64,000 nt of DNA from Lachnospiraceae bacterium UBA7205 (GCA_002490665.1 DKUL01000059.1:53704-117703); one strand, 5' to 3'. Positions 8,472-56,580 are shown, counted from the first letter of the stretch. Made by a program: numbers and translations. The notes: a model not told the origin generated them from the sequence alone.

Positions 8472-8519
8472 GATTCAACAAGGTGAATAACACAAAAATG
8501 TATATCAGGAGGACAAATC

Positions 8520-10016
8520 ATGTTGGAAATAAAGAATTACAAATTTTGGTTTTGTACAGGTTCACAGGACCTGTATGGAGAGGAATGCTTAAAAAATGTG
8601 GCGGAGCATTCAAAAAAGATCGTGGATGTGTTAAATACATTCGGGAAACTGCCTTTTGAAGTCGTGTGGAAGCCGACGTTGATTGATCAGGCGTCAATCA
8701 GGCGGACTTTTAACGAGGCAAACAATGATGGGGAATGTGCAGGCATTATCACGTGGATGCATACTTTTTCACCTGCAAAGATGTGGATTATCGGCCTTCA
8801 GGAGTATCACAAGCCATTGTGCCATCTGCACACGCAGTTTAACATGGAAATTCCGTATGATACCATTGACATGGATTTCATGAATGAAAACCAGTCTGCC
8901 CATGGTGACAGGGAATACGGTCATATTGTCAGCCGTATGGGGATAGAGCGCAAAATTATCGTAGGTCATTTCACCAATGAGGGCGTACAGGAAAAACTGG
9001 CGGACTGGATGCGCACGGCAGTCGGCATCATGGAATCTTCCCATATCCGTGTTGTCCGTATTGCGGACAACATGAGAAACGTAGCCGTGACAGAAGGCGA
9101 TAAAGTGGAGGCACAGATAAAGTTCGGCTGGGAAATTGATGCGTATCCGGTCAATGAAATCGTAGAATATGTGGATGCTGTCTCCCAGGCGGACAGGGAT
9201 GCGCTCGTGGAAGAATACTACGGCAAATATGAAATCCTTCTGGAAGGCAGGGATGAAAAAGAGTTTCGGGAGCATGTTGCCGTACAGGCGGGGATTGAGC
9301 TTGGTTTTGAAAAGTTTTTGACAGAGAAGAATTATCAGGCAGTTGTGACGCATTTTGGTGATTTGGGAGGCTTAAAACAGCTTCCGGGGCTTGCAATACA
9401 GAGGCTGATGGAAAAAGGATATGGATTTGGCGCGGAAGGGGACTGGAAGACTGCGGCAATGGTGCGCCTTATGAAACTGATGTCGGCAAATACACCGAAC
9501 GCAAAAGGAACTTCTTTCATGGAGGACTACACATATAACCTTGTTCCGGGCAAAGAGGGCATTTTGCAGGCGCATATGCTTGAGGTATGCCCGACAATTT
9601 CGGACGGCTCGGTTGCCATCAAGTGCCAGCCGCTCTCCATGGGCGACAGGGAAGATCCGGCTCGTTTGGTATTTACAAGCAAGACCGGCCCGGCAGTGGC
9701 AACTTCCCTGATTGATCTCGGAACCCGTTTCCGTCTGATTATCAATGCGGTTGACTGCAAAAAGTGCGAGAAACCCATGCCAAAACTTCCTGTAGCGACA
9801 GCATTCTGGACGCCACAGCCTTCTTTGGAGGTTGGCGCACAGGCATGGCTTCTTGCGGGCGGCGCACACCATACGGCATTTTCCTATGACCTGACCGTGG
9901 AACAGTTGGAGGACTGGGCAGCGGCAATGGGAATTGAGAGCGTTGTCATAGATAACAATACGACAATCCGTGATTTTAAGAATGTACTTAGATGGAATTC
10001 CTTTGCATATCGTTAA
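8520..10016 (+). CDS. araA: L-arabinose isomerase
   Basis: GSQDLYG, WMHTFSP, LHTQFN, NQSAHGDRE, GFGAEGDWK, FMEDY, HMLEVCP, GGAHH motifs. Confidence 0.96.
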   Translation: MLEIKNYKFWFCTGSQDLYGEECLKNVAEHSKKIVDVLNTFGKLPFEVVWKPTLIDQASIRRTFNEANNDGECAGIITWMHTFSPAKMWIIGLQEYHKPLCHLHTQFNMEIPYDTIDMDFMNENQSAHGDREYGHIVSRMGIERKIIVGHFTNEGVQEKLADWMRTAVGIMESSHIRVVRIADNMRNVAVTEGDKVEAQIKFGWEIDAYPVNEIVEYVDAVSQADRDALVEEYYGKYEILLEGRDEKEFREHVAVQAGIELGFEKFLTEKNYQAVVTHFGDLGGLKQLPGLAIQRLMEKGYGFGAEGDWKTAAMVRLMKLMSANTPNAKGTSFMEDYTYNLVPGKEGILQAHMLEVCPTISDGSVAIKCQPLSMGDREDPARLVFTSKTGPAVATSLIDLGTRFRLIINAVDCKKCEKPMPKLPVATAFWTPQPSLEVGAQAWLLAGGAHHTAFSYDLTVEQLEDWAAAMGIESVVIDNNTTIRDFKNVLRWNSFAYR

Positions 10017-10058
10017 AACATTCAATGGAAAACCGACTGGGCAGGAATGGAGGAAGAA

Positions 10059-11693
10059 ATGGAAGGCAGCGGAGAAATTAAGAGAGCCATAACAGAGGGA
10101 AAGACTGCGCTTGGGATTGAGTTTGGTTCGACAAGGATTAAGGCAGTTCTTGTGACGCAAGATCATGTTCCCATAGCTTCCGGCAGCCATGAGTGGGAAA
10201 ACCAGCTTGAGGGAAATATCTGGACATACAGCCTTGATGATATATGGAAGGGCTTGCAGGATGCTTATGCGCAGATGGCAGGGGATGTAAAAAAACAGTA
10301 TGGAGAAACGCTGACTACGACGGGCGCAATTGGTTTCAGCGGTATGATGCACGGTTATATGGCATTTGACAAAAACGGTGAATTGCTGGTTTCTTTCCGC
10401 ACATGGCGCAATACGATTACGGAAATGGCGGCGCAGAAGCTGACAGAAGAATTTCACTATAATATTCCCCAGAGGTGGAGTATTGCCCATTTGTATCAGG
10501 CGATTTTAAACGGTGAGGAGCATGTAAAGGATATTGCCTTTCTGACGACGCTGGCAGGCTACATTCACTGGAAGTTGACCGGAGAAAAAGTGCTCGGCGT
10601 GGGAGAGGCTTCCGGTATGTTTCCGATTGATGTGCAGACGAAAGACTTTGATAAGAATATGATAGGGCGTTTTGACAAAATGACGGCAGACAGAAATTTT
10701 CCATGGACGCTTTCCCAAATTCTTCCAAAAGTTCTGGTGGCAGGGGAGCACGCAGGAAACCTGACGGAAGAGGGGAGCAGACTGCTGGATGTGAGCGGCA
10801 ATCTGAAGGCGGGGATTCCGCTCTGTCCGCCGGAAGGCGACGCAGGAACGGGAATGGCGGCGACCAACAGCATTGCAAAGCGCACTGGGAATGTATCCGC
10901 AGGAACCAGTATTTTTGCAATGATTGTTTTGGAAAAAGAGCTGACGAAAGTATATCCTGAAATTGACCTTGTCACGACACCCGATGGGAATCTGGTAGGA
11001 ATGGTACACTGCAATAACTGCACTTCCGATCTGAATGCGTGGGTAAATCTTTTTAAGGAATTTGCAGAGAGCCTTGGCATGAAAGTGGATAGAAATGCGT
11101 TATTCGGAACATTATACAAAAAAGCGCTGGAAGGCGATGCTGCGTGCGGAGGCCTGCTTGCCTATAATTACGTTTCAGGGGAACCCGTTACCGGATTTGC
11201 GGAAGGAAGGCCGCTCTTTGTGCGGACGCCGGAGAGCAGTTTTAATCTTGCAAATTTTATGCGTGTCAATCTGTTTACCGCGCTTGCGTCCTTAAAAGTG
11301 GGACTTGATATCATGCTGAAAGAAGAGGGTGTCCGGGTAGACAGGATTTTTGGCCACGGCGGACTTTTCAAGACAAAAGAAGTGGGGCAGAGGATTATGG
11401 CGGCAGCGATGAATGCGCCGGTTTCCGTGATGGAGACTGCGGGAGAAGGCGGCGCGTGGGGAATTGCTCTGCTGGCATCTTATATGCTTCATAAAGAAAA
11501 GGGGGAGTCGCTGGACGCTTACCTGCAAAACAAAGTGTTTGCCGGGCAGACAGGGGAAGAAATGCAGCCGTCGCAGGCGGACGTGGACGGTTTTGATATC
11601 TTTATCGAGCGTTATAAAAAAGGATTTTCCATTGAACGTGCAGCGGTCGAGCATCTAAGAAACGAGTACTGGAACTGCAATATTGACTTGTAG
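10059..11693 (+). CDS. araB: FGGY-family carbohydrate kinase, probable L-ribulokinase
   Basis: [42 protein letters not shown]; follows araA. Start moved to the ATG after GGAGG. Confidence 0.8.
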
Positions 11694-13521: not shown

Positions 13522-13550
13522 AATGCAAAGATAAATGCGGAGGAGTGTCA

Positions 13551-15653
13551 ATGAAAAAGAAACTAATGCTGCACAATAAAGGGACAAATTATTTCCTATT
13601 CAGCATCAGAAATAAAATAATCATTTGTTTTCTGGTTCCCTTATCCTTTATGATTATCATTGGGTATTCTGCATATCAGAAGGCGGCAGAGGGAATGCAG
13701 CAGAAATTTCAGGAATCGACACTTCAGACCCTAAGAATGGTGACAGAGTATGTGGACATGGGCTGTGACTTTATTGAGGCAGAGGGAACCAAGTACGCTT
13801 TTAATACCGAGCTGGCAAAGTACTATCTGGGTTTTTTTGAGGATGATTTGATTGGAAAAAAGGATTTGATCGAGAAAACGAAATATGATATTCTGTCTGC
13901 CCAGATTATCAACCCATTTATCAGCAATATACATATTATTACCATGGAAGGAATTTCTATGCTTTCGACCAGGGATACAGCTTCCGCAGATGGTTTTTAT
14001 GAAAGCTATATGGAATCCATGTCAACGGGGGACAGTACAATTGACAAATGGGTTGACAGACATACGATATTGGATGAATATCTGGGACTCGATGAAAATG
14101 ACTATATTCTGTCCCTGCAGGTTCTGTCCCAGTCTAAGAATGCGTGTATTGTGATTGATGTGAAACAGGAGGAGATCAAGAAGCTTTTGGAGAATCTGGA
14201 CATCGGCGAGGGCAGTATGGTCGGTTTTGTTACTGGAAGTGGAAAAGAGATTGTCTGTGTGAAAGCAGCAGAGGGACAGGAAAGTGACCTGGTGGAAGGC
14301 GGAAATGTATTTTGGGGACAGGAGTTTTATGCCGGTATCAGCAATGAGACTGATGAGTCTGTCGGGGAAGAATTATTGGAAGGCTCTAAGGAAGTATCAT
14401 TAGACGGGAAAAAATATCTGTTCCTTTTCAGCAAAAGTGAAAAAATAGGAGCAACCGTGTGTGCGTTGATTCCGGTTTCCGTTGTCACGAACCAGGCGGG
14501 TGAAATAGGCAGTCTGACAATTGTTCTGGTGCTCATTGCAAGTGCGATTGTTTTATGTGTAGGATTTGTGACAGTATCAGGTATTCAAAATAATATGAAG
14601 CGCATCTCAAAGAAGTTTGGAGAGGTGGAAAAAGGAGATTTAACAGTAAAAATTGCGGTAAAGGGCCGGGACGAGTTCAGAGGGCTTGCCGGTTCTGCCA
14701 CACACATGATTGCAAATACAAAGAATCTTGTGAACAAAGTGAGATATGCGACTGTCCAGCTGGGGGAATCTGCCAATGACGTAAACGCAGTTTCCGGCGT
14801 GATTGAAGAACACTCCCATGAAATAACAAAAGCTGTCAGGGAAATTAATGCGGGTATGGCGAAGCAGTCAGAGCACGCGCAGGAATGTGTGGCAAAGACA
14901 GATATATTGTCCGGTGAAATCCAGAAAGTCGGTCATATTCTAGGAGATGTTGAAAAAATGGTAAGGGCGACAGATGGCATGATTGCCCATGGAATGGAAC
15001 TGATTCAGGTTTTGGGCAGCAGGGCGGCGGAAACAACTGATATTACGGACAAGGTCAGCGAGAGCATTGATGTGCTAAGCGAAGAAAATCAGAAAATCAA
15101 TGCATTTGTGGAAATCATTACAGACATCAGCGAACAGACAAACCTGCTTTCTTTAAACGCTTCCATTGAGGCTGCGAGAGCCGGAGCGGCAGGGCGTGGA
15201 TTTTCGGTAGTCGCAGAAGAGATTCGCAAGCTGGCGGATGATTCGGCAAGGGCGGCAGGTGAAGTACGTAATAATGTAAAACAGATTAACACACAGGTTA
15301 GGAACAGCATGGAAAATGCAGGTCAGGCGCGTTCCATGGTTGATCTGCAATCGAAATCTGTTGGGGAAGTCATTGCTGTATTTCACAAGATGCAGGAACA
15401 CATGAACCAGCTTGTGGAAGGGCTGGATCATATCATGAACAGTATGGAAAGTGCGGACAGCGAGAGAAGCGACACGGTAAATGCAGTAAAACATATTTCT
15501 GACATCATAGAGTCCGCCGCCGCCAGTGCCGAGGTCGTCAATGAAGTCGCGGACGGTCTGATGAGAAATGTTACAAATCTGGGACGCACAGCAGCGACGC
15601 TCGGCGAGAATATGGAGGAATTGAGGGCAGAAATCTCTGTTTTTAAAACATGA
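13551..15653 (+). CDS. Methyl-accepting chemotaxis protein (extracellular sensor domain, HAMP)
   Basis: Two TMs flanking a sensor domain, HAMP (GDLTV...DEFRGL), signalling hairpin [17 protein letters not shown]. Confidence 0.92.
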
Positions 15654-45583: not shown

Positions 45584-46906
45584 TCAATCAGGGGGATACA
45601 TATTCCGTTTGCTCATGGCACACACAATGCCAAAATAGCAAGTATAAAAAACTACAATACATGCCCCGAACGCACCGGTTAACTTGAGCAGAATATTCTT
45701 CAAAGAAGCTGGCAATATTAAGTTCATTTTTCCGTTCAGTAACGGTATGCAGAATAAAATAATCAATAATGCCATTATCATTGGAGTGGTCAGCTTGATT
45801 GCTATCTGCCGATTCACAAGTCTTGCTGTCTGCTTATTGCTTTTTCCCAGACAGCGCATTATCTGATTGCTTTTTGAATTTTGCCGAATCTCTATAATCT
45901 GCTGCAAGGATAATATTGAAAAATAAATAACCAGAAACACGATGCAGATACTTATCTGTGAAGTTCCCATCCACTGCTGCATAGCCGCATCAAAAAGCTG
46001 AAATTCCGGATGCAGCATCAATAGTCCGGTCACGAAAGAACATCCGGAAAATAAAAAGCATATGCAGAAAATGGCATTAACGGTAGCAGCCGTTTGTATA
46101 TTGGATGTTACATTTGCCACAATATATAGCCTGTCTTTTTGATAGATTTGAACGGATTTCATTTGCCTGTACGCATATAAATAACCAAACACCCATTTGT
46201 AAAAAGCAAAGACAGATATAAGCAGGGGTATTGCCGCAACAGATATGGGATAAACAACATAAACCGCTGGCAAAAAAACAATGCCACAAACGCAGCCTAT
46301 TAGGCAGATAAAACACAATAAGAAGACAATGCCCCATTTTTTATAGCTTTCTATTTCTTTTACGCCTTGGCTGCGGTTTCCTTCATACATCAGTTCCCTT
46401 ATTTGCAGCCTGTCTATGCGCTGCTTCAACCGAAAAGAACACACTGTTTCAATAAGGCAAAAAAACAGGAACGTATAGAGCATACTTTTTCCATAAAGGA
46501 ATCCGTAATGGTTCATTTCATGCAGCGGTTCATGGAAGTACCAAAAGCCATATATGGAAAAACCTATTGTTGCGCCTGCCATGTAACAGCAAAAGCCGAT
46601 CAGCAAAACTTCGCACAGGAACAGCCGGGTTAATCTCTTTTTTTCCATACCCAGTAATAAATAGCTTGCAAACTCTTTTGCCCGCTGCCTCAGCAGAAAT
46701 AAGTCGATATATCCGGCTAAAACTATTTGGATGGCTGCTATCAGCAATGGCAGGGAAATTACCTGAAAACCGGCTGATTTTCCTGTGATGGTTATACAGT
46801 TAGATACCTCCATAACCGCCAAAAGGACGGTCATGGTAACAACATATAAAAGGTAATTTATAAAAGAACGCCTGGCATTACGGATTGACAGCTTCAAGTA
46901 CATCAT
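45584..46906 (-). CDS. FtsX/BceB-like ABC permease lacking the large extracellular domain
   Basis: RQRAKEFASYLLLGM and IMRCLGKS FtsX-like loops; about 10 TMs; ATG overlaps the ATPase TGA. Confidence 0.7.
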   Translation of the reverse strand: MMYLKLSIRNARRSFINYLLYVVTMTVLLAVMEVSNCITITGKSAGFQVISLPLLIAAIQIVLAGYIDLFLLRQRAKEFASYLLLGMEKKRLTRLFLCEVLLIGFCCYMAGATIGFSIYGFWYFHEPLHEMNHYGFLYGKSMLYTFLFFCLIETVCSFRLKQRIDRLQIRELMYEGNRSQGVKEIESYKKWGIVFLLCFICLIGCVCGIVFLPAVYVVYPISVAAIPLLISVFAFYKWVFGYLYAYRQMKSVQIYQKDRLYIVANVTSNIQTAATVNAIFCICFLFSGCSFVTGLLMLHPEFQLFDAAMQQWMGTSQISICIVFLVIYFSILSLQQIIEIRQNSKSNQIMRCLGKSNKQTARLVNRQIAIKLTTPMIMALLIILFCIPLLNGKMNLILPASLKNILLKLTGAFGACIVVFYTCYFGIVCAMSKRNMYPPD

Positions 46907-48000
46907 GGCATTTTTCTCCTCTCTATCCATTCTATTTTCTTCAAAATATCCGCGAAAAAGTTCTGTTTGTTTTCATGTTCCCGGTTTAAGGAAGCTTTTA
47001 TTTCGCCGTCTTCCATAAATAAAATCCTGTCACAATAGCTTGCCGCCATGACGTCATGTGTGACCATCAGTATTGTTGCGCTGTACTCTCTGCAAAGCAT
47101 GGAAAGGGTGTCTAAAAGCTGTCTGGCAGCATGGGAATCCAATGCCCCGGTAGGCTCATCCGCAAGTATGATATCCGGATTTAACACAATGGCACGGGCG
47201 CAGGCGCAGCGCTGCCGTTGTCCTCCCGATACCTCATATGGAAATTTATCTAATATTGCCGATATATTCAGCTTTTCAGATAAACCTTGAATCATTGGAC
47301 GAATATTTTCTTTTGCAACCTCTTTAATTGTCAGGGCAAGCGCAATGTTTTCATAGATAGTCAGGGTTTCAAGTAAGTTGTATTCCTGGAAAACAAAACC
47401 TAAATGGCTGCGGCGAAATTCTGCGGCAGCTGCATCTGGCATATCCGCGATGTCCTGCCCGCTAATTCGTATCGTCCCATTCGTTGGCTTGTCTATTGTG
47501 GCGATTAAATTAAGCAGTGTTGTTTTCCCGGAACCGGAAGCACCCATGATTCCAACAAAGCTGCCGTGCGGTATCTGAAAACTTACGTCATTTACAGCTA
47601 ATACAGAATTATTTTCTGTTTCGTGCCCTGACGAAATGGTTTCATAGAGCTTGGAAACATTTACGACCTCCAAAACATTTTGGGGTGCTGTATCACTTTC
47701 CTTAAATTCCCATTTATCATGTCCTAACCAATTCGTAATCACGTCCATAAGTACCTCGTCTGCTTTCTCTTTCAGCTTATCTTCCGCAATGCGCTCACCC
47801 GCAAATAGTTCATTTAAAGTAACGTCTAAAAGAGTGCATAAAGGCAAAAACAAAGATAAATCCGGCATGGACCGTCCGGTTTCCCATTTTGAAATAGCCT
47901 TATCGGTTATTTCCAGTTTTTCTGCTAACTGGCTTTGCGTCCAGCCTTTTGCTTTCCGGCGCTCGGAAATAAAAGCGCCAATCTTAACTTGATTCATCAT
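46903..48000 (-). CDS. XRE HTH - ABC ATPase (BceA/LolD-like) fusion
   Basis: N-terminal XRE (TQSQLAEKLEITDKAISKWETG) in frame with GASGSGKT, FVFQEYNL, VSGGQRQR, LADEPTG, MVTHD. Confidence 0.85.
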   Translation of the reverse strand: MMNQVKIGAFISERRKAKGWTQSQLAEKLEITDKAISKWETGRSMPDLSLFLPLCTLLDVTLNELFAGERIAEDKLKEKADEVLMDVITNWLGHDKWEFKESDTAPQNVLEVVNVSKLYETISSGHETENNSVLAVNDVSFQIPHGSFVGIMGASGSGKTTLLNLIATIDKPTNGTIRISGQDIADMPDAAAAEFRRSHLGFVFQEYNLLETLTIYENIALALTIKEVAKENIRPMIQGLSEKLNISAILDKFPYEVSGGQRQRCACARAIVLNPDIILADEPTGALDSHAARQLLDTLSMLCREYSATILMVTHDVMAASYCDRILFMEDGEIKASLNREHENKQNFFADILKKIEWIERRKMP

Positions 48001-48104: not shown

Positions 48105-48264
48105 AGTTCTGTACGGAATTTGATGAAATATAAGGAAATATGTATATTTCGATTATATCATTGCGCTATCCCGAAATCTATCTTGTTTTGTCAGGGCAGT
48201 CTGACCGGCTTTTTTTAAAAACAATTCTAAAGACGTTTTTGTAGAAAAAGCTTTCATTATCTGG

Positions 48265-48286
48265 AATATTATGGTACTATAATATT
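48265..48286. promoter_or_regulatory. 22-bp palindrome overlapping the -10 of the hydrolase-KAS III-MCP operon
   Basis: AATATTATGGTACTATAATATT, one mismatched pair, contains TATAAT. Confidence 0.5.
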
Positions 48287-48340
48287 AGCTATAATGCGCT
48301 TAAAAAAAGAAAAACATATGATGCGAAGGGGGAACGCAAG

Positions 48341-49120
48341 ATGAATTCAAAAAAAATACTGCCATATGAGAGGATAGGAAATTGTGCAAGCAGCACGACG
48401 TTGATTTTCCTGCACGGTTCTACCATGTCCATGGGTGGGATGCATCCGTTTGCAAGTGCATTCGACGCGTACAACTGCATTGTTTTTGACCTGACGGGTC
48501 ATGGGAAGTCGGATGAGAAAGAACCGGAAGCAGTAAGCGGTTTTGCGGAGGATGTGGAATATTCGGTTAACCAGCTCAGGGAACAAAATATTGTCACGGA
48601 GAAAGTCATCCTGCTGGGCTATTCAATGGGCGGTGCAATTACCTGTGAGACTGCCATCCGTGGGAAATTAAAGCTTGACGGCATCGTACTGCTAAGCAGT
48701 GGCGCCGATTTGAAGCATTATACGCCTTTGGTCGACAATCTTAAGACAATGCCGATGGAAGCGTTTCGGACAGAGGATATTCTGGACGCCCTATTCGGCC
48801 CGGATGCCGCAGACGAGGACAAGGCAAGCATTAAAGGGCTGTTTCTTTCCACAAAGTCAGCAGACACGACAGGCTATATGGATTTGATGGTTTCCAATGC
48901 ATACGACAACCTTGAAGCAAGCAGGGGAATCAAAATTCCGGCGCTTATGGTGCACGGCAGCAGTGACGTCATTGTCGAGCCGATGGCGGCAGTCGAGACA
49001 TGGCGGGCAATAGAAGGCAGCCAGCTTCTCATGGTTCCATACAAAGGGCACAGCGCCATTTTTGAGGATACCGAAATGATAAGGGATAAGATTGTTTCAT
49101 TTATAAATATGTGTTCTTAA
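48341..49120 (+). CDS. Alpha/beta-fold hydrolase
   Basis: IFLHG, FDLTGHG, nucleophile elbow GYSMGG, HGSSD (Asp), KGHS (His): intact triad. Confidence 0.9.
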   Translation: MNSKKILPYERIGNCASSTTLIFLHGSTMSMGGMHPFASAFDAYNCIVFDLTGHGKSDEKEPEAVSGFAEDVEYSVNQLREQNIVTEKVILLGYSMGGAITCETAIRGKLKLDGIVLLSSGADLKHYTPLVDNLKTMPMEAFRTEDILDALFGPDAADEDKASIKGLFLSTKSADTTGYMDLMVSNAYDNLEASRGIKIPALMVHGSSDVIVEPMAAVETWRAIEGSQLLMVPYKGHSAIFEDTEMIRDKIVSFINMCS

Positions 49121-49166
49121 ACAAGGCGCCTGTTAGTATCGATAGTTGAAAGGCGGAATGATAAAT

Positions 49167-50168
49167 ATGGAAAACAATGCTGTCATTAAAGGAGTTTCAT
49201 ATTACCATCCGGACAATGTGGTGGATAATGAGTTTTTTATAGAACATTTTAAGAAACAGGGGAAAGACATAGAAGGGCTGCTGCGTGCGACGGGAAGGAA
49301 AAGCAGATATATTTCAAATGACGATGAAGAAAACATGCTGACAATGGGGTATCAGGCAAGCCTTAAGGTACTGGAGCAGACGCACGTAAAGGTTTCGCAG
49401 ATTAATATGATTGTATTTTCTTCCGGAACGCCCGAGTACATAGCGCCGACAAACGCGCTGAAGCTGCATTCCATGCTGAGCGCGGGGCAGAAGTGCGCAG
49501 TCTATGACCTGAATGCCAACTGCGCAGGCATGGTGGTTGCACTTGACCAGATTGCGAGGCTGATGCGGAGCAATCCGGATGTAAAGTATGCCCTTCTGGT
49601 CGGCTCTGACCAGCTGAACCGGTATGTGCGGTACAATGAAGTCGTCCCGTACTCAAATTTTGCAGATTCGGCATGTGCCATGGTAATCGAAAATGTTTTT
49701 TCGACGACCAGGGGATTTGTTGATTCCGACTTTTATACCAATTCAAGCCATCATGATAAAATCCTTATGCCGGCAAAAGGGATGTCCACCGTGACAAGGG
49801 AAAAGAATCTGCCGACGAAGGACAAGCTGGTCAAGTGGGTTCCGTTTGACTTCGGGGGTGCGTTCCACAGTGCAAAGATATCCGTGGAGGAGCTGCTGTT
49901 CAAGAACAGCCTGCACAAGGATGATATCAAGAGGTATTATTTTTCACAGCTTGCCTGGAAAAATATTGTCCATGCCTGTGAGGACATGGAGGAAGACATA
50001 GCAAAGTTCAAGTTTGTCGGTGACGAATTCGGATACACGGGGACGACAAGCCCGATGCTTGCCTACGCAAGGTCACTGGAGGAGAACGAACTGCAAATCG
50101 GGGACTATGTCATTTTTTGGACGGTTGGCGCAGGGACGACATGTGCGACAGTTTTATATCAATATTAA
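49167..50168 (+). CDS. Atypical KAS III (FabH-like) thiolase-fold enzyme
   Basis: YDLNANCAG (catalytic Cys), GSD, FWTVGAG; FSQL replaces HQAN and GYTG replaces GNTS. Confidence 0.85.
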   Translation: MENNAVIKGVSYYHPDNVVDNEFFIEHFKKQGKDIEGLLRATGRKSRYISNDDEENMLTMGYQASLKVLEQTHVKVSQINMIVFSSGTPEYIAPTNALKLHSMLSAGQKCAVYDLNANCAGMVVALDQIARLMRSNPDVKYALLVGSDQLNRYVRYNEVVPYSNFADSACAMVIENVFSTTRGFVDSDFYTNSSHHDKILMPAKGMSTVTREKNLPTKDKLVKWVPFDFGGAFHSAKISVEELLFKNSLHKDDIKRYYFSQLAWKNIVHACEDMEEDIAKFKFVGDEFGYTGTTSPMLAYARSLEENELQIGDYVIFWTVGAGTTCATVLYQY

Positions 50169-50180
50169 GGAGAATAGAAT

Positions 50181-51668
50181 ATGCAGACACAATCAGCAAA
50201 CAGTGAGGAAAGACTCATCAATAATATTATGTTTATTTACATTTTTGGCGTTGCAGTTTCAGGCTTCAGTTTTGTCATGATTTTTTTGCACGGCGGAATA
50301 CGGGAATGTATCTTCCTTCTGTCCGGCTTATGTGCCATCCTGACCAAATTACTTGAAAAGCCGCTGGGAAAGAATGCAAAATATGTATATGCCTGCATTC
50401 CACCGATTATCGGGGCTATTACTGCCGCAGTCTGTAATACGGACACCAGTGACAGTTATGTCTGCCTGACCCATTACTATTTTGTAGCAACATTGCTGCT
50501 GGTGCCGTATTATTCGCAAAAGCTAATCCGTGTGAGCGTTACAGTGACCGTGCTGGTCAATGCGGGGATGATGATTCTGTTTCCGGCAGGATTTTTAAAG
50601 CTCCACAGTGTTATCGGCTGGATATTTACGGGAATTGTGTACATCGTGCTCTTTGCCGCGTGCAGTTTTATCATATACCGCACAATCGCCCTTTTTAAGA
50701 TTGTGGAAGAGCAGGGACAGGATGCGGAGAATGTGCTGCACAACGTGCAGGCTGCGTTTGACAGTCTGGAGGAGTCCTCTGAAGCAATATATACTTCCCT
50801 GCAGGAATTTGAGGGCAATACAGAGGAAATTGCAGCTTCCACGCAGCAGATTAGTGAGAGCGCTGATTCCCAGATTAGCGAGGTTGAAAACAGCCTGACA
50901 ATTTTTAGCGAGTTAAATGATAAGATTGTAAAATCCGAAGAACGTGTGAACCAGACGGTTGAGACGATTAAAAATCTGAAAAACAAAAATGATGAGGGAT
51001 TTTCCGTGATAGACGCACTCTCAGAGCAGTTTGAGGAGAACATCAGGACAACACAGACTGCGGCGGATGGCGTTGAGGAGCTGTCCCGCAAATCAAGTGC
51101 GATTGGCGGCATTATAGAGAGCATCCGGCAAATTGCAAGGCAGACCAACCTTCTTGCGCTCAATGCATCCATCGAGGCTGCGAGGGCAGGGGAGGCAGGA
51201 AAGGGATTTGCGGTCGTCGCGGACGAAATTAATTCCCTTTCGAATGAATCTTCAAATGCAACCGGAAAAATAGATGCCATTTTGAAAGATATTATCGAGA
51301 CGGTAGAATCGACGCACAAGGTCATGAACCACAATAACGATGTGGTAAATGATTCCAGCGGAAGACTGGACGATACCGTGAAAATCTTTAAGGTCATGCT
51401 GGAATCCTCGGAGGAGGTTATTGATATCACACAGCTGCTGAAATCAGAGCTTGAGGATATCGTTGCCATAAAGGAGCAGCTTCTGGGCGTGATGAAGCGC
51501 GTTGAGGACGGTTCCAAAAACTTTGTGCTTACGACAGAAGGCATTAGTGCATCGACGGAAGAACAGGTTGCCGGTCTGGACAATATTGTGAAGTCAATGA
51601 AGAATATGCAGGCGGGGATGGAACGTCTTTCCAGTGTGCTGCACAGTGAAAAGGAGAATGGGAAATAA
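50181..51668 (+). CDS. Methyl-accepting chemotaxis protein with an approximately 6-TM membrane-embedded sensor domain
   Basis: About six hydrophobic segments in the first 190 aa, then [27 protein letters not shown]. Confidence 0.9.
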
Positions 51669-51705
51669 CCGGGAAAATGCAATAATATAATCAAATGAAG
51701 CGGAC

Positions 51706-51744
51706 AAAAGTGCCATATCCCATCGAAAGGGTGTGGCGCTTTTT
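51706..51744 (+). terminator. Intrinsic terminator after the MCP gene
   Basis: AAAAGTGCCATATCCC-loop-GGGTGTGGCGCTTTT with G-U pairs and a T tract. Confidence 0.7.
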
Positions 51745-51800
51745 GCGCGAAGGGAATGTCTTCCCTGTTTGATTTGCAAATTATTGCAGAAACAGATATC

Positions 51801-51909: not shown

Positions 51910-54900
51910 ATGAAAAAAAAGAAATCAGTACGGGAAATCGGTTCCATTTTATTTCTTCTGGCGGCAATTATCATTATCTTTTGCTGGTATACCGCACAAA
52001 ACAGCAGCCGCATCGAAACGCGGAATAAGAGCTATGCAGCGGATTCAGCGCGCCAGACATCGACGCGCATCAATGAGGAAATGAAGAACGCGTTGGAACT
52101 GATTGATACCTATGCGTATTTTGTGGGAGAGGGGCTGTATAAGCCTGATATTGATGAGCAGATGCTCAAGGATATCGAGCATAATGCGCTGTTTGACGCG
52201 GTATTGTTTACTGATGCCTCCGGAATAAACCATACCTCTGACGGACGAACATCAAATGCAGCGGAACGCGATTATTACCTGAATGGAATGAGGGGGGAGA
52301 GCGGTATCGCGGTTATATTCGACTCTTATTTCTTTAACGAGACAATGGTCAGCTTCTATGCACCTGTCCGGTATAACGGAAAAATCATCGGCGTGCTGCG
52401 GGGTTCCTTCCTTGCAGAGGAGTATCTTAAAAACATGCTGACAACCACTTATTTTGGCGAGGCGGCAGATGTGTACCTGTGCATGCCCGATGGGAGGGCG
52501 ATTGCAAGTTCCGGTGAAAATATATATAAAAATAACCTGATTGATATGCTGGAATCAGATAATGTGATTGACGGCAATGCTGCCAGTGATTCAAGGGGAA
52601 TTTTTATGCATGGGGGGGAAGGCTCCTTTATCTGCGGTCCTGGAAGCAGGACTGACAATATCTGTGTAATGAACCTTGCAGATAACGATTTTGTCCTGGT
52701 GCAGACATTTCCCAAAAGTGTCACACAGCGCATGATAAAGGACGAAAACATGATCGGAATCCAGCTGGAAATGATGCTGATTGGATTGTTTGTCATCTAT
52801 ATTATCACGCTTGTAGTTCGCGCGGGACAGGAGAAAAAGCTGCTTGAACATGAAAACCGTGAGATGGGATATATTATCAAGGGTGTCATGACGCTGTTTT
52901 CGCGCTTTGCGCTGGTCGATTTTGAGGCGGATACATACCAATATCTTGCCGGAACAAGCGCAGAGGACAGCACACTGAATACCCAGGGACAGTATGAGGA
53001 GCTTGCGGCATATATGAGTGACATTTTAACGGATAAGGATGAGCGTGAGGAGTTTTTGCGCCTGATTGAAAGGGAATCCGTTATCAGTGCGTTGTCAGAA
53101 CACAGCGATATGCGGCTTGAGCGCCATGTGATGCGGAATGGGCAGGAAGAGTGGGAGCATATGAACATCATCTGCCTGGAAAGGAAGGATGGAAAGGCGG
53201 TGAAAGCGCTGATTATCCGCCAGAATATCACGGAGGTAAAGGAAAAGGAGCTGATGATACAGGCACAGATTTCTCTTGCCAGCCGTAAAGAGCGCCAGTA
53301 TCAGATTGCAATTACATCCAACGCAATCTGTACCTTTGAGTTCAATCTCACAAAGGATATGATAGAGCAGGATATCCAATTCAGCCAGGATGATGAGCAG
53401 ATACGTTTGCTGGATATGGCAGCCCTGAAGGCACCGTGTGAAGCATCCGGGTGGTTTGCGCAGTGCAGAAAACATGTATCAAAGGAATCACTGGAGAACT
53501 ATGACACGACAGTCAATGTGGCATATCTGAGGGAATGCTTTGGGCGGGGCGAGTCGGAAGTGAGCGCCGAGTACTGGTGCAGGGATCTTGACGAGCGTGA
53601 AATTTGTGTCCGCCAGTCATTTCTTATGACGCAGGATGACACGACAGGCGACACGATGGTCATGGTGGTGATAAAAGAGGTTACGGAGAGCGTCAGAAAA
53701 CAGCGTGAACAGACACAGGCCTTGCAGGATGCACTGATGCAGGCACAGCATGCAAACAGGGCAAAAACGACATTCCTGTCAAATATGTCCCATGACATCC
53801 GGACACCGATGAACGCGATTATCGGGTTTACAACGATTGCGGTAAGCCACATTGACAACAAGGATCAGGTCAGGGACTGCCTGCAGAAGGTCCTGTCCTC
53901 GAGCAACCATCTCCTGAGCCTGATTAATGACATCCTTGACATGAGCCGGATAGAGAGCGGAAAAGTGCAGATTAAGGAGCAGGACTGCAATATTTCCGAA
54001 CTGATGCACAACCTTGTCAATATTATCCAGCCGCAGGTTAAGGCAAAGCAGCTGGAGCTGTTTATTGACACCTTTGAGATTGTAAACGAAGATGTGGTGG
54101 CAGATTCACTTAAGCTCAACCAGGTATTTATCAATCTCCTGAGCAACGCGGTTAAATATACGCCGGCGGGCGGGAGCATTGCATTCCGGATTATGCAGAA
54201 GACAACGTTCCGTCACGGATACGGTGATTACATTTTTATTATCAAGGACAACGGCATCGGTATGTCCAAGGAGTTTGTGAACCATATATTTGAACCGTTC
54301 GAACGTGAGTCGACAGTGACACAGTCGGGAATTCAGGGAACCGGTCTTGGAATGGCAATCACAAAGAATATAGTAGAGATGATGGGTGGCGAGATTCATG
54401 TTGACAGCGAGGTCGGCAAAGGCAGTACCTTTACCGTGGAGATATCCCTGAAGCTACAGGATGTTGAAAAAAATGCGGAACAGATTAAGGAGCTTGACGG
54501 CCTGCGTGCGCTTGTGGTGGATGATGACTTCCATGTCTGCGACAGCGTGAGCAAAATGCTCAAACAGATTGGAATGCGTTCGGAGTGGACGACATCCGGC
54601 AGGGAAGCGGTTTACCGCGCACAGATGGCATATGAGGAAGGGGACGCCTACCATACGTACATTATCGACTGGCAGATGCCGGAAACAAGCGGCATTGAAA
54701 CGGCAAGAAAGATTCGCATCGTAGTGGGAAATGACGCGCCGATTATCATCCTGACAGCATATGACTGGACGGATATTGAGGAGGAGGCGCTGGCTGCGGG
54801 CGTCACCGCATTCTGTGCAAAACCGCTCTTTATGTCTGACTTAAAATCTGCGCTGCTTGCTGCAAACAACCTGGTTGACAATGAGGATGAGGCGGCTGCG

Positions 54901-55299
54901 TGGACACTGGCAGATTTCAGTGGGAAGCGTGTCCTGCTTGTGGAGGATATTGAGCTAAACCGTGAAATCGCGCAGGTGATACTGGAAGAGGCGGGATTTG
55001 TCGTTGAATCAGCGCCGGACGGAACAGATGCGGTTGCAATGGTGGAGAATTCAGAGGAAAACTACTATGATGTCGTTTTGATGGATGTACAGATGCCGAT
55101 TATGAATGGCTATGAAGCCACAAGAACCATCCGGAGCATGCCGAGAAAGGATGTCAGGGATCTGCCGATTATCGCCATGACAGCCAACGCATTGGAGGAA
55201 GACAAGGAAGCGGCACTGAAGAACGGAATGAATGCCCACATTTCAAAACCGCTGAATATGGATATTTTCATTTCCGTGCTGAAACAGTTTGTAAAATGA
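51910..55299 (+). CDS. Hybrid sensor histidine kinase with two receiver domains
   Basis: TM-Cache-like domain-TM, PAS-like region, FLSNMSHDIRTPMN, NLLSNAVKY, GTGLGM, REC1 (IIDWQMP), REC2 (LMDVQMP). Confidence 0.93.
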   Translation: MKKKKSVREIGSILFLLAAIIIIFCWYTAQNSSRIETRNKSYAADSARQTSTRINEEMKNALELIDTYAYFVGEGLYKPDIDEQMLKDIEHNALFDAVLFTDASGINHTSDGRTSNAAERDYYLNGMRGESGIAVIFDSYFFNETMVSFYAPVRYNGKIIGVLRGSFLAEEYLKNMLTTTYFGEAADVYLCMPDGRAIASSGENIYKNNLIDMLESDNVIDGNAASDSRGIFMHGGEGSFICGPGSRTDNICVMNLADNDFVLVQTFPKSVTQRMIKDENMIGIQLEMMLIGLFVIYIITLVVRAGQEKKLLEHENREMGYIIKGVMTLFSRFALVDFEADTYQYLAGTSAEDSTLNTQGQYEELAAYMSDILTDKDEREEFLRLIERESVISALSEHSDMRLERHVMRNGQEEWEHMNIICLERKDGKAVKALIIRQNITEVKEKELMIQAQISLASRKERQYQIAITSNAICTFEFNLTKDMIEQDIQFSQDDEQIRLLDMAALKAPCEASGWFAQCRKHVSKESLENYDTTVNVAYLRECFGRGESEVSAEYWCRDLDEREICVRQSFLMTQDDTTGDTMVMVVIKEVTESVRKQREQTQALQDALMQAQHANRAKTTFLSNMSHDIRTPMNAIIGFTTIAVSHIDNKDQVRDCLQKVLSSSNHLLSLINDILDMSRIESGKVQIKEQDCNISELMHNLVNIIQPQVKAKQLELFIDTFEIVNEDVVADSLKLNQVFINLLSNAVKYTPAGGSIAFRIMQKTTFRHGYGDYIFIIKDNGIGMSKEFVNHIFEPFERESTVTQSGIQGTGLGMAITKNIVEMMGGEIHVDSEVGKGSTFTVEISLKLQDVEKNAEQIKELDGLRALVVDDDFHVCDSVSKMLKQIGMRSEWTTSGREAVYRAQMAYEEGDAYHTYIIDWQMPETSGIETARKIRIVVGNDAPIIILTAYDWTDIEEEALAAGVTAFCAKPLFMSDLKSALLAANNLVDNEDEAAAWTLADFSGKRVLLVEDIELNREIAQVILEEAGFVVESAPDGTDAVAMVENSEENYYDVVLMDVQMPIMNGYEATRTIRSMPRKDVRDLPIIAMTANALEEDKEAALKNGMNAHISKPLNMDIFISVLKQFVK

Positions 55300-55374
55300 C
55301 AGGTGCCATGTGCAGGAATGCATCGGGCAGACAGGGCATAGTTATGAATAAATATGTGGAGTGAGGCGTTTGTG

Positions 55375-56580
55375 ATGCATGACAAAATGAGGCATGGTTT
55401 GGTGCTTTTTGTCCTGATACCGTTTCTCATGCTTGCAGTATGCGGGTTTTGTCTGGGGAATCGGACAGGGGACACAAAAAATGGGACGGATATTGCACAG
55501 GATGCTGTGAATGAGGTGTTGCTTGAGAAGCAGGAAGAGGAGCTGCTGGCGGCAATGTCCTTGGAGCAAAAGATTGCGCAGATGTTCATTGTGACGCCGG
55601 AGTCCCTGACGGATGGTGCAAATGTAACAACAGCTGACGGCGCGATGCGTGCCGGCATGCAATTATATCCGGTTGGCGGACTGGTCTACTTTTCCAAGAA
55701 CCTGACAGACGCCGGGCAGACAAAGGAGATGCTGCGCTGCACGCAGGAGTTTTCCCTGGAAATACAGGGTCTGCCGTTGTTTCTGTGTGTGGATGAGGAG
55801 GGCGGAAGGGTTGCGCGCATTGGAAACAATAAGGGCTTTGATGTGCCAAAGGTAGGACCGATGGGAAACATTGCATCAAAGGAGGCGGCACATGAGGCAG
55901 GGAGCAAGGTCGGCAGATATTTAAGGGAGCTGGGGTTTAACCTGGATTTCGCACCTGATGCGGATGTGCTCACGAACAATAAAAACACAGTGATTGGAAA
56001 CCGCTCTTTTGGAAGCGACGCACAGACCGTGCTGCAATATGCCCGCGCCTATTCTGACGGGCTGCATGAGAATGGGGTATTGAGTACGTTCAAACATTTT
56101 CCGGGGCACGGCGCCACTGAGGCAGACACGCACGAAGGTTTTGCGTACACGGATAAAACCTACGAGGAACTGATGCAGGCAGAGCTGCTGCCGTTTGCCG
56201 GTGCCGGGGAAGCTGGCATTGACTGTGTGATGGTTTCCCATATAGCAGTGCCAAACATTACGAGGGACAATGTACCCTGTACGTTGTCTTACAGAATGAC
56301 AGGCGAAATCCTGCGCGGGGATTTGGGCTATGATGGCATCATTGTCACGGATGCCATGAACATGGGGGCGGTTACCCAAAACTATTCCAGCAACGAAGCC
56401 GCGGTAGCGGCAGTCAAGGCGGGTGTGGACATGATACTGATGCCGGAGGACTTCCATCTGGCAGTGCAGGGTGTCCGGAATGCCGTACAGAACGGCGAGA
56501 TTTCCGAGGAGCGCATTGATGAGTCCGTGAGACGGATAATCAAAGTGAAACTGGGGAAACTGATGGGAAACACGCTCTAG
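55375..56580 (+). CDS. GH3 beta-N-acetylhexosaminidase (NagZ-like), membrane-anchored or secreted
   Basis: VDEEGGRVAR, APDADV, KHFPGHG, TDAMNMGAV; N-terminal hydrophobic segment. Confidence 0.85.
   Translation: MHDKMRHGLVLFVLIPFLMLAVCGFCLGNRTGDTKNGTDIAQDAVNEVLLEKQEEELLAAMSLEQKIAQMFIVTPESLTDGANVTTADGAMRAGMQLYPVGGLVYFSKNLTDAGQTKEMLRCTQEFSLEIQGLPLFLCVDEEGGRVARIGNNKGFDVPKVGPMGNIASKEAAHEAGSKVGRYLRELGFNLDFAPDADVLTNNKNTVIGNRSFGSDAQTVLQYARAYSDGLHENGVLSTFKHFPGHGATEADTHEGFAYTDKTYEELMQAELLPFAGAGEAGIDCVMVSHIAVPNITRDNVPCTLSYRMTGEILRGDLGYDGIIVTDAMNMGAVTQNYSSNEAAVAAVKAGVDMILMPEDFHLAVQGVRNAVQNGEISEERIDESVRRIIKVKLGKLMGNTL

Follow-up and report, generated by a model that had tools for sequence, protein, structure and literature searches.

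Organization and transcription of the locus

The locus lies within a 64,000-nt stretch of Lachnospiraceae DNA, here called the window, and consists of three open reading frames, all on the plus strand, which span positions 48341-51668 and encode a hydrolase, a KAS III-fold enzyme and a chemoreceptor (MCP). Its features are as follows:

48255..48296, plus strand: promoter region, with a TATAAT -10 box at 48279-48284 within the near-palindrome ATTATGGTACTATAAT and a weak -35 element
48341..49120, plus strand: α/β-fold serine hydrolase, 259 aa; Pfam Abhydrolase_1/Hydrolase_4; predicted cytoplasmic
49167..50168, plus strand: KAS III (FabH)-fold enzyme, 333 aa; Pfam ACP_syn_III and ACP_syn_III_C; invariant Cys119-Ser260-Tyr290
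49234..50151, plus strand: segment lost in a sister lineage by an in-frame 918-nt deletion of nearly the whole KAS III gene
50181..50720, plus strand: six-TM sensor domain of the MCP, residues 1-180; no Pfam model; AF2 pLDDT 91.3
50721..51668, plus strand: cytoplasmic signaling domain of the MCP, ~315 aa, no HAMP domain; Pfam MCPsignal; conserved hairpin tip
51709..51766, plus strand: intrinsic terminator with a long stem-loop and U-run, behind which lies a second short hairpin

RNA contigs cover all three genes on one transcript whose ends match the promoter and the terminator, which bears out the single transcription unit proposed in the initial annotation of this DNA. The contigs start at 48305 and 48331, 15-40 nt 3' of a conserved block with TATAAT, and stop at 51703, 51713 and 51823. 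The promoter block (GGAATATTATGGTACTATAAT), with TATAAT inside it, is kept in four close relatives, and the conserved block of the promoter feature, GCTTTcTTTATcTGGAATATTATGGTAcTATAAT, is common to L007-L010. The palindrome originally ascribed to this promoter holds up less well, as the inverted repeat at 48255-48296 is imperfect (76% complementary) and lies in AT-rich DNA. The terminator expected after the MCP gene is predicted to fold at -38 kcal/mol (z = -5.4), with none of 200 shuffled sequences as stable, and a terminator-like site was also called at 51751-51766. The KAS III frame opens at a TTG codon at 49146 (49146-50168), and we place its likely true start at the ATG at 49167 because the homologues are 333 aa long; the intergenic gaps then measure 46 nt between the hydrolase and KAS III genes (25 nt with the TTG start) and 12 nt between the KAS III and MCP genes.

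In agreement with the initial annotation, no ACP or other fatty acid genes are found near the cassette in the window, and none is conserved across 34 related loci. PKS genes are likewise absent from the window and from the 34 loci, where no exporter or other biosynthetic gene is conserved near the cassette either. The lack of a conserved ACP, exporter or biosynthetic neighbor implies that the substrates of the encoded enzymes must be common metabolites.

An intact hydrolase and a KAS III-fold enzyme with a substituted active site

The first gene product matches Pfam Abhydrolase_1 (E = 1.4e-19) and combines the fold, nucleophile-elbow Ser, acid and His of an α/β serine hydrolase. Ser95 (in GYSMGG), Asp209 and His236, together with an HG oxyanion motif, are shared by 95% or more of the 26 orthologues, and the Ser-Asp-His triad described at the outset is therefore intact. 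The protein reaches no specific equivalog cut-off; its best PDB match, 3E0X, is 100% identical to CA_C0816, the orthologous cassette hydrolase of C. acetobutylicum, whose crystal structure it represents. Neither the hydrolase nor the KAS III-fold enzyme has a signal peptide or TM segment visible in its sequence, which makes the once-suggested quenching of an external signal by the hydrolase unlikely.

The second gene carries the automated label ketoacyl-ACP synthase III, and the AF2 model of its product matches FabH structures with a TM of ~0.8, confirming a thiolase-type fold. Upon alignment with E. coli FabH, its NANCAG motif falls on Cys112, F-S-Q on His244 and G-Y-T on Asn274, so that the Cys-His-Asn triad of FabH is replaced by a retained Cys with Ser in the His position and Tyr in the Asn position. 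These are the substitutions that had been noted from the sequence, and ~120 family members, with identities as low as 57%, all share the same Cys, Ser and Tyr; as identity to FabH is just 20-23%, positions in the C-terminal half rest on a weak alignment. By the same comparison the enzyme has lost the FabH residues for CoA-adenine binding (W32, R151) and ACP docking (K256, K257). The invariant Cys, Ser and Tyr, together with a median pairwise identity of 71% among members, point to an active enzyme under strong constraint, not to a FabH paralogue in decay, and the predicted Cys-Ser-Tyr active site is a fixed trait of this KAS III subfamily. From the same active-site residues we infer that the enzyme is nondecarboxylating.

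The automated label and the FabH-like fold could also be taken to mean that this is an ordinary or redundant FabH paralogue that initiates fatty acid synthesis and lies by chance beside a chemoreceptor gene, a case whose probability we consider next to negligible. No member retains the His and Asn on which malonyl-ACP decarboxylation depends, the scores stay well short of the FabH thresholds (TIGR00747, 117.7 vs 292.1 bits; NF006829, 126.8 vs 249 bits), and, as detailed below, adjacency to the sensor gene is kept across two families of Clostridia despite shuffled gene order, while the enzyme co-evolves with the sensor and, in C. acetobutylicum, shares its regulation with the MCP.

Two known classes were rejected as assignments for the enzyme. 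Its scores are far below the cut-offs of the StlD/DarB model NF005293 (26.7 vs 450 bits) and of NF053539 (22.3 vs 550 bits), and the His and Asn are absent, which excludes a StlD/DarB-type signal KAS III; a CerJ/DpsC-type acyltransferase was set aside for the Ser in place of His and for the missing ACP and PKS genes in the window and the 34 loci. Among PDB sequences, PqsD, OleA and CorB are matched only weakly (E of 1e-6 to 1e-7).

A six-helix membrane sensor with interchangeable outputs

The MCP as a whole (50181-51668, 495 aa) matches MCPsignal (PF00015) with E = 1.5e-31 and 110 bits vs a cut-off of 34.6, and the tip motif is visible in the translation. Hydropathy and the AlphaFold model (pLDDT 91) agree on six N-terminal membrane helices connected by loops of at most 11 residues, corroborating the proposed sensor of about six TMs with no outside domain; a HAMP domain is absent, and TM6 continues directly into the signaling helix. 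No Pfam model covers the sensor, a PDB fold search with it gave no match at E ≤ 1e-3, and its family is small, with 83 representatives among 1.84 billion proteins, and has E10, N14, F18, K67, Y68, Y70, P75, T123 and W147 as invariant residues. The domain is a new family, unannotated until now and defined here on three types of output, namely MCP, AgrC-type GHKL kinase and HisKA hybrid kinase, and behaves as a portable input module that co-evolves with KAS III. A second MCP is encoded within the window at 13545-15653.

Conservation and co-evolution of the enzyme-receptor pair

The KAS III gene adjoins the sensor-MCP gene in 32 of the 34 species-level loci, which display three gene orders and unrelated flanks across two families of Clostridia. 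Enzyme and receptor, in near-obligate adjacency, are the core of the cassette. The initial proposal would have been undermined had its three genes rarely co-occurred, and in this regard the core pair stands; the hydrolase is found at only 26 of the 34 loci, is the least conserved member and diverges without correlation to KAS III, so that the obligate three-gene triad first envisaged gives way to an enzyme-receptor pair with the hydrolase as an optional accessory.

Among 19 dereplicated Lachnospiraceae loci, KAS III divergence correlates with that of the sensor (rho = 0.60, Mantel p ~2e-4) and not with that of the MCP signaling domain (rho = 0.00), and sensor types correspond approximately one-to-one to KAS III clades. 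The sensor is equally uncoupled from its own signaling domain (rho = -0.03), a pattern that points to output swapping. The KAS III-sensor correlation could partly reflect co-inheritance of adjacent DNA, with the 3' half of the MCP gene recombining.

In the sister lineage that has lost most of the KAS III gene, the deletion joint (49233→50152) is present in contigs of runs X2, X10, X18 and X23, with a near-identical joint in X24, and the hydrolase and MCP genes are retained and transcribed; DNA runs X25, X30, X32, X36 and X28 carry the intact locus. As the deleted lineage is naturally present in laboratory rodents, it provides a ready comparison of a candidate producer with a nonproducer.

Orthologues in C. 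acetobutylicum and LytTR-linked relatives

CA_C0814-CA_C0816 of C. acetobutylicum are true orthologues of the window cassette (60% identical for KAS III, 38% for the sensor and 24% for the hydrolase), arranged in the order hydrolase-MCP-KAS and annotated in generic terms only, in a genome that also has cheA, cheW and cheY. In transcriptomes, the three genes change together (0.11/0.13/0.17 and 0.02/0.04/0.04), and agrB and the Agr-controlled CA_C0082 change alongside them (PMC4845359; PMC10301443). Our literature searches retrieved no functional study of CA_C0814-CA_C0816 and no prior description of a cassette of KAS III and a six-TM chemoreceptor. With a manipulable, motile host and the hydrolase structure 3E0X in hand, these genes offer a tractable model.

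At L013, L039, L041, L043 and L045 the sensor is fused to a HATPase_c_5 kinase beside a Response_reg-LytTR regulator, and L013 unites sensor-kinase, LytTR regulator, hydrolase, KAS III and sensor-MCP. Direct repeats of the form ATTTTCGY...ATTTTCGY with 21-bp spacing occur only in LytTR-bearing loci, and such LytTR-box-like repeats precede the cassette at L013, L016 and L031 and, at L013, the kinase operon as well. LytTR wiring is found in 3 of the 34 loci, and there is no LytTR system near the window cassette. No AgrB protease or AgrD precursor is encoded in any cassette, the gaps in the window measure 12-46 nt, and no other family is conserved.

A possible enzyme-made signal with a dedicated receptor

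We propose that the locus may constitute a signaling cassette in which an enzyme-made lipophilic signal is sensed by a dedicated membrane receptor, and we tentatively assign this reading a probability of about 0.45. The cytoplasmic KAS III-fold enzyme would load an acyl group on Cys119 and then perform an acyl transfer or a nondecarboxylative condensation of common acyl-thioesters, the replacement of the His/Asn decarboxylation pair by Ser/Tyr implying a reaction other than malonyl-ACP condensation. The product, conceivably the acylated lipophilic cue of the initial annotation, would be a small molecule that, having partitioned into the membrane, is recognized by the six-TM sensor, and because the latter is fused directly to the MCP signaling domain, the expected output is the CheA/CheW chemotaxis pathway. 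In some relatives, the sensor type also sits on an AgrC-type kinase paired with a LytTR regulator, and putative repeats for that regulator precede both its own and the cassette operons, which would amount to autoinduction-style wiring. The hydrolase, an optional accessory, might serve to free the product from a thioester or ester linkage or, alternatively, contribute to intracellular turnover of the signal. The quorum-like synthase/receptor idea put forward earlier gains from the AgrC/LytTR circuit and its putative boxes in some relatives, and the adjacency and co-evolution of enzyme and sensor lend a synthase/receptor pairing further indirect support.

Several results count against the signaling-cassette proposal: the restriction of LytTR wiring to few loci, the window excluded; the persistence of a KAS III-deleted lineage that expresses the other two genes; the sensor-family members without an adjacent KAS III, described below; the share that co-inheritance could have in the KAS III-sensor correlation; and the lost CoA-adenine and ACP-docking residues, which put the acyl donor in doubt. 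Furthermore, invariant sensor residues (E10, N14, F18, E59, K67, Y68, Y70 and Y110) lie on loops or helix ends predicted to face the cytoplasm, and not in any obvious pocket open to the outside.

Some of these observations fit a second explanation, in which KAS III, rather than making a signal, works with the receptor in the cytoplasm: charged on Cys119 with an acyl group from cellular acyl-thioesters, it would either dock on the cytoplasmic face of the sensor or transfer the acyl group onto it, so that the MCP or kinase would report the lipid or energy state of the metabolism and the hydrolase would reset the system. We regard such direct coupling as somewhat unlikely, if a serious contender. 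Both enzymes are predicted to be cytoplasmic, K67, Y68 and Y70 are grouped with other invariant residues at the predicted cytoplasmic interface, the co-evolution of KAS III involves the sensor and not the output domain, the canonical CoA- and ACP-binding residues of FabH are not retained in the enzyme, no exporter is conserved in the cassette, and residues 194-229 of KAS III, highly conserved and modeled with low confidence, could be a partner-binding lid. Eight representatives of the sensor family that were chosen without regard to KAS III all lacked an adjacent KAS III gene, with informative flanks at L043 (±8 kb) and L047 (±6 kb); taken with the cytoplasm-facing residues, such sensors keep alive a reading in which the enzyme acts on the receptor, but those in loci without a nearby KAS III retain the same invariant residues, which speaks against it. 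The sensor cysteines are not conserved, arguing against S-acylation, and direct coupling is further weakened by a hydrolase that is missing from 8 of the 34 loci and does not co-evolve, by a KAS-deleted lineage that keeps and expresses the receptor, and by AgrC/LytTR wiring and promoter repeats that look more like autoinduction than metabolic sensing.

The Cys119 thioester might also acylate the sensor reversibly on the invariant Lys/Tyr cluster of its cytoplasmic face (K67, Y68, Y70), with the hydrolase as eraser. Such a system would parallel CheR/CheB methylation with lipid groups and would tune chemoreceptor and kinase signaling to the acyl-thioester pool of the cell, and the cytoplasmic location of the enzymes, the exclusive co-evolution of KAS III with the sensor, the cytoplasm-facing conserved residues and the loss of the usual CoA and ACP acceptor features in KAS III are consistent with it. 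As the hydrolase is optional and non-co-evolving and sensor proteins exist without a neighboring KAS III, we consider it very improbable.

Finally, the hydrolase and KAS III could process a lipophilic ester or acyl compound from the host, the diet or neighboring cells, with the MCP sensing that compound or its product, much as chemoreceptor genes are embedded in catabolic clusters. The hydrolase resembles esterases, enol-lactonases and PHA depolymerases, all below family cut-offs, a membrane-embedded sensor suits hydrophobic ligands, in at least one case, L047, a sensor-MCP without KAS III lies beside an uptake system, a sugar ABC transporter, and the Clostridia that carry the cassette live in the gut, where they meet lipids from the diet and the host. 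Taxis to such an exogenous compound is nevertheless rather improbable, given that no transporter, CoA ligase or β-oxidation genes are conserved with the cassette, that thiolase-fold KAS III enzymes are, as far as we know, biosynthetic or acyl-transferring rather than catabolic, that the hydrolase is both dispensable and the least conserved of the three, and that neither enzyme-sensor co-evolution nor an autoregulatory LytTR layout is expected for a nutrient.

Comparison with known systems

CqsA/CqsS of Vibrio (CAI-1) and LqsA/LqsS of Legionella are pairs of an autoinducer synthase and a six-TM sensor kinase, and they share with the cassette a cytoplasmic enzyme that makes, or in the cassette would make, a lipophilic signal from acyl-thioesters, encoded next to a receptor whose sensor is a six-helix membrane bundle with no outside domain. 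CqsA is a PLP-dependent acyl-CoA transferase, whereas the cassette enzyme has a thiolase fold; CqsS feeds a phosphorelay rather than chemotaxis, and the cassette sensor returned no significant hit when its fold was searched against the PDB. The kinase circuits of L013, L039, L041, L043 and L045, with their 21-bp-spaced repeats, resemble AgrC/AgrA (an HPK10 GHKL kinase with a LytTR regulator), but AgrB and AgrD are lacking, there is no room for a peptide-precursor ORF, and the output in the window is an MCP. Unlike in Agr, the cassette enzyme is KAS III-like, which implies a nonpeptide signal. The intercellular signals known from Clostridia are, to our knowledge, chiefly peptides (Agr, RRNPP), with AI-2 in addition, and an enzyme-made lipophilic signal with its own membrane receptor family would, if real, be a new signaling chemistry for a group whose members range from the Lachnospiraceae, abundant commensals of the gut, to solvent producers used in industry.

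The enzyme shares a KAS III fold, a catalytic Cys and a role outside fatty acid synthesis with PqsD/PqsBC (alkylquinolones), PpyS (photopyrones), DarB/StlD (dialkylresorcinols) and OleA (head-to-head condensation), and its pairing with a hydrolase recalls OleA with the α/β hydrolase OleB. Enzymes of the PqsD, PpyS, DarB/StlD and OleA types, as far as we know, keep the His and usually the Asn where the cassette enzyme has Ser and Tyr, and, unlike it, none is genetically hard-wired to a chemoreceptor. CerJ, ChlB6, DpsC and MupB have similarly lost Cys-His-Asn, which makes acyl transfer rather than decarboxylative condensation the plausible reaction by analogy; these enzymes have Cys/Ser-His-Asp triads and belong to large polyketide clusters with ACPs, whereas the cassette enzyme lacks the His and has no ACP or PKS genes around it.

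AI-2 chemotaxis, in which the signal is sensed via LsrB/Tsr or dCache chemoreceptors, likewise involves a chemoreceptor responding to a self-produced signal, here a candidate one (PMC5056481; PMC7584622). Those receptors detect AI-2 through periplasmic binding proteins or dCache domains, and their genes lie apart from that of the synthase, in contrast to the membrane-embedded sensor described here, which is co-operonic with a candidate synthase and would, if the proposal is correct, provide a compact genetic example of cells swimming toward or away from a cue that they make themselves, of a kind rarely identifiable from sequence.

An expressed operon and its proposed role

The cassette occupies window positions 48341-51668 and consists of three open reading frames on the same strand:

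48341-49120, + strand: alpha/beta hydrolase of 259 aa (open reading frame; Pfam Abhydrolase_1/Hydrolase_4)
49146 (TTG) or, as the likely start, 49167 (ATG; MENNAV...) to 50168, + strand: KAS III-fold protein (open reading frame; Pfam ACP_syn_III + ACP_syn_III_C)
50181-51668, + strand: methyl-accepting chemotaxis protein (MCP) of 495 aa (open reading frame; Pfam MCPsignal)

We favor the ATG as the start of the KAS III gene because the homologues are nearly all 333 aa long, which leaves intergenic gaps of 46 nt (25 nt with the upstream TTG) and 12 nt; none of the three proteins reaches the NCBIfam equivalog cut-offs. The cassette is an expressed operon: a single mouse-gut metatranscriptome contig covers 48397-51713, and further RNA contigs have their 5' ends at 48305 and 48331 and their 3' ends at 51703 and 51823. 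The 5' ends are consistent with a TATAAT element at 48279-48284, within a block kept in four close relatives, and the 3' ends with a strong terminator spanning ~51709-51745 (-38 kcal/mol, z = -5.4). The initial annotation had described the promoter as palindrome-bearing, and one palindrome does overlap the conserved -10 element; the palindromes are, however, imperfect (76%) and AT-rich, and the overlapping one may or may not be an operator. An Rfam E-value scan of the locus for riboswitches, leader RNAs or sRNAs returned nothing credible.

We consider an enzyme-receptor signaling pair to be the most economical reading of the cassette, with a probability of roughly 0.45. The remodeled KAS III would use common acyl-thioesters to make a lipophilic molecule, which the dedicated six-TM sensor of the MCP would detect; the output would be chemotaxis and, in some species, also LytTR-driven transcription with positive feedback, with the hydrolase acting as an optional maturation or turnover enzyme.

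A remodeled KAS III and a conserved hydrolase

Aligned to E. coli FabH, the NANCAG, FSQ and GYT motifs singled out in the initial annotation indeed fall at Cys112, His244 and Asn274, and the Cys, Ser and Tyr found at these triad positions do not vary in ~120 family members, the most distant of them at 57% identity. An AlphaFold model of the enzyme (pLDDT 77.8, pTM 0.83) matches FabH structures at TM ~0.8 and 20-23% identity, and fold comparison found no specialized KAS III-like enzyme closer than these. Further substitutions, which at such low identity are indicative only, affect the CoA-adenine sandwich residues W32 and R151 of FabH (Gly and Ala/Val in KAS III), the basic ACP-docking residues K256 and K257 (acidic) and the Phe87 gate (Ala, Ser or Leu). 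The family alignment reveals two more invariant cysteines besides the nucleophile Cys119, namely C170, within an NF(A/G)DSACA stretch in place of the FabH GDGAGA loop, and C326, which follows the GAG loop. Residues 194-229 form a highly conserved 35-residue segment of very low model confidence, suggestive of a lid or partner-binding element. An ordinary FabH was rejected on the altered triad, the family cut-offs (117.7 vs 292.1 bits) and the conserved gene context, and the chance adjacency of such an enzyme to a receptor gene is a highly improbable account of the cassette. Membership tests likewise place the enzyme outside both the DarB/StlD-type enzymes and the CerJ-type acyltransferases, and the flanks hold no ACP or fatty-acid genes.

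The intact catalytic triad noted in the hydrolase holds as well: its HG motif, GYSMGG (Ser95), Asp209 and His236 are each kept by 95% or more of 26 orthologues. PDB entry 3E0X is the C. acetobutylicum orthologue CA_C0816 itself (100% identity; 3571-4299 of the C. acetobutylicum locus L001), a structural-genomics crystal structure under a generic name for which we found no linked functional study in the literature.

A new family of membrane-embedded sensors

The predicted six-TM sensor holds: both the hydropathy pattern and a model with pLDDT 91.3 point to a membrane bundle of six helices in which no loop exceeds 11 residues, and the cassette MCP is without HAMP, its sixth helix running on into the signaling domain. 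No Pfam model covers this domain, and comparing its high-confidence model with PDB folds gave no significant match; the best hit, to the membrane portion of ImcA, a diguanylate cyclase, was rejected as too weak (TMq 0.53, probability 0.66). An exhaustive HMMER search with sensor residues 1-180 retrieved just 83 representatives among 1.84 billion proteins, and the Pfam-assigned outputs of 20 of these comprise 12 MCPs, five AgrC-type kinases (HATPase_c_5) and one HisKA-HATPase_c hybrid kinase with two receiver domains, the other two having no domain hit. The sensor is a portable domain of a new family, outside every described one. In a separate set of hits, apparent extra architectures all proved to be truncated fragments of the same MCPs.

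The invariant residues of the sensor are E10, N14, F18, K67, Y68, Y70, P75, T123 and W147, whereas its cysteines vary across the family, which led us to reject their S-acylation. By the positive-inside rule, most of the invariants lie where helices 1, 3 and 4 end on the cytoplasmic side. This cytoplasmic conserved face counts against a signaling pair, as do the cytoplasmic appearance of both enzymes and the lack of a conserved exporter. The main rival is direct coupling, in which the acyl-enzyme would either bind to the cytoplasmic face of the receptor or acylate it, and thereby report metabolic state; we regard it as possible, though on the unlikely side.

Conservation and co-evolution of enzyme and sensor

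We compared the cassette across 34 species-level loci: the window, the C. acetobutylicum locus and 32 that a genome scan returned. The counts are lower bounds because this pattern-based scan missed C. acetobutylicum. KAS III adjoins an MCP with the six-TM sensor domain in 32 of the 34, the MCP lying downstream of it in most of the Lachnospiraceae but upstream in Clostridium and in some other loci, and the hydrolase is found in 26; the flanks are otherwise unrelated, with no further family conserved. The gene order is hydrolase-MCP-KAS in C. acetobutylicum, and a goat-gut Lachnospiraceae genome shares the order of the window. Two loci lack the adjacency: in a Clostridium species KAS III lies beside ordinary 4HB-HAMP MCPs (L036), and in a Clostridiaceae MAG it has no MCP beside it (L037). 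The three-gene unit proposed in the initial annotation is thus upheld for the KAS III and sensor-MCP pair but not as an obligate triad: the conserved unit is KAS III plus sensor domain.

Conversely, none of eight sensor-family representatives sampled independently of KAS III has the enzyme next door, so that, with the sensor side drawn from these eight loci, the enzyme is nearly always accompanied by the sensor and not vice versa. Locus L043 combines a LytTR regulator, a sensor-kinase and a sensor-MCP at 7257-10943 with no KAS III within 8 kb, its sensor domains being mutually 29% identical, and in L047 a sensor-MCP follows a sugar ABC transporter with no adjacent KAS III. A stand-alone 93-aa LytTR-only protein is encoded nearby in L043 (5691-5972). 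Another reading of the cassette, in which it would serve taxis to a lipid or ester of exogenous origin, we hold to be quite improbable.

Median pairwise identity is 71% for KAS III, 40% for the sensor domain and 50% for the MCP signaling domain. Mantel comparisons over 19 dereplicated Lachnospiraceae loci reveal a correlation of KAS III with the sensor domain (Spearman rho 0.60, Mantel p about 2e-4) and none with the MCP signaling domain (rho 0.00, p 0.47) or, over 15 loci, the hydrolase (rho 0.08, p 0.24); nor does the sensor correlate with its own signaling domain (rho -0.03, p 0.57). Sensor types correspond approximately one-to-one with KAS III clades. Since the signaling domain is part of the same polypeptide as the sensor, it acts as an internal control and the enzyme is tied specifically to the sensor module; closer physical linkage, together with recombination in the MCP gene's 3' half, could still explain part of the correlation.

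LytTR wiring in relatives, and expression in C. acetobutylicum

In locus L013 a GHKL kinase bearing the sensor domain comes first, then a Response_reg-LytTR regulator, followed by the hydrolase, KAS III and the sensor-MCP; the kinase and MCP sensor domains are 57% identical. An orthologous LytTR regulator lies immediately upstream of the cassette in L016 and L031. Direct repeats with 21-bp periodicity (ATTTTCGY...ATTTTCGY), a geometry familiar from Agr/Com-type LytTR promoters, precede the cassette in all three loci as well as the L013 kinase-regulator operon, and the extended motif occurs nowhere else in 684 kb of loci; the window has neither such repeats nor a LytTR gene. At 2900-2960 of L013, just before the hydrolase ribosome-binding site, a 19-nt palindrome-containing unit, TTTTACACAAATGTAAAA, stands twice in perfect tandem and may be an operator. 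An AgrD-like peptide precursor within the cassette was rejected, there being no room and no conserved small ORF.

In C. acetobutylicum, CA_C0814-0816 (KAS III, MCP and hydrolase) drop together in two adhE mutants (0.11/0.13/0.17; 0.02/0.04/0.04) along with agrB, CA_C0079, CA_C0082 and a large secondary-metabolite cluster, and are flagged as repressed under butanol stress (PMC4845359); the level of CA_C0814 is raised in strain EA 2018, which does not sporulate (PMC3044671). CA_C0082 is Agr-controlled (PMC10301443), and CA_C0814-0816 are absent from the accessible supplement of the Agr/CA_C0082 paper. Our literature searches found no functional study of the C. acetobutylicum cassette and no description of a KAS III linked to a chemoreceptor or to quorum sensing. 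Functionally, the closest analogues of the cassette are CqsA/CqsS-type pairs and Agr-type circuits, and its interpretation as a signaling pair of synthase and membrane receptor, built from new parts and feeding into chemotaxis, is partly supported.

A natural KAS III deletion

Some contigs join 49233 to 50152 and define the following feature:

49234-50151, + strand: in-frame 918-nt deletion of KAS III

The deletion, which spares the first 67 and last 17 nt of the gene, was recovered in five runs from at least five studies, one of them aligned as 49237 to 50162. Three of the runs are metatranscriptomes and two are of unrecorded type, with contigs of 4-5 kb that extend into a different upstream flank. 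The sister lineage that carries the deletion, from mouse-gut samples, is ~97% identical to the window in the hydrolase part and ~99.8% in the MCP part, and still transcribes the hydrolase and sensor-MCP. Together with the intact locus in other DNA runs, these contigs indicate that a receptor-bearing lineage without the enzyme circulates in laboratory rodents.

Flanking genes and host

Four further features of the window lie outside the cassette:

45584-46930, - strand: FtsX-type permease gene, overlapping the HTH-ABC ATPase gene
46903-48000, - strand: XRE-type HTH and ABC-transporter ATPase fusion, just upstream of the cassette and divergent
51910-56580: dCache hybrid histidine kinase (two receiver domains) and GH3 glycosidase, downstream of the cassette
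13545-15653: second MCP of 702 aa, unrelated to the cassette MCP

The dCache kinase and GH3 glycosidase are not cassette members, since their conservation is confined to the closest relatives (L007 and L008), and the second MCP indicates a multi-receptor chemotaxis repertoire. The nearest genomes are uncultured Lachnospiraceae of the rodent gut, and a rat-gut metagenome carries the locus at 100% identity. A search for anti-phage defense systems with PADLOC returned just weak coiled-coil noise on the MCP. The N-terminal fusion of an XRE-type HTH to an ABC-transporter ATPase is an unusual architecture, and a related ABC ATPase lies near the cassette, at varying positions, in 12 loci. Within this fusion gene, contigs of two RNA runs (X2 and X10) contain an opposite-strand joint of 47240/47241 to 47688/47689, which could reflect either an inverted segment of ~450 bp in related strains or an error of assembly.
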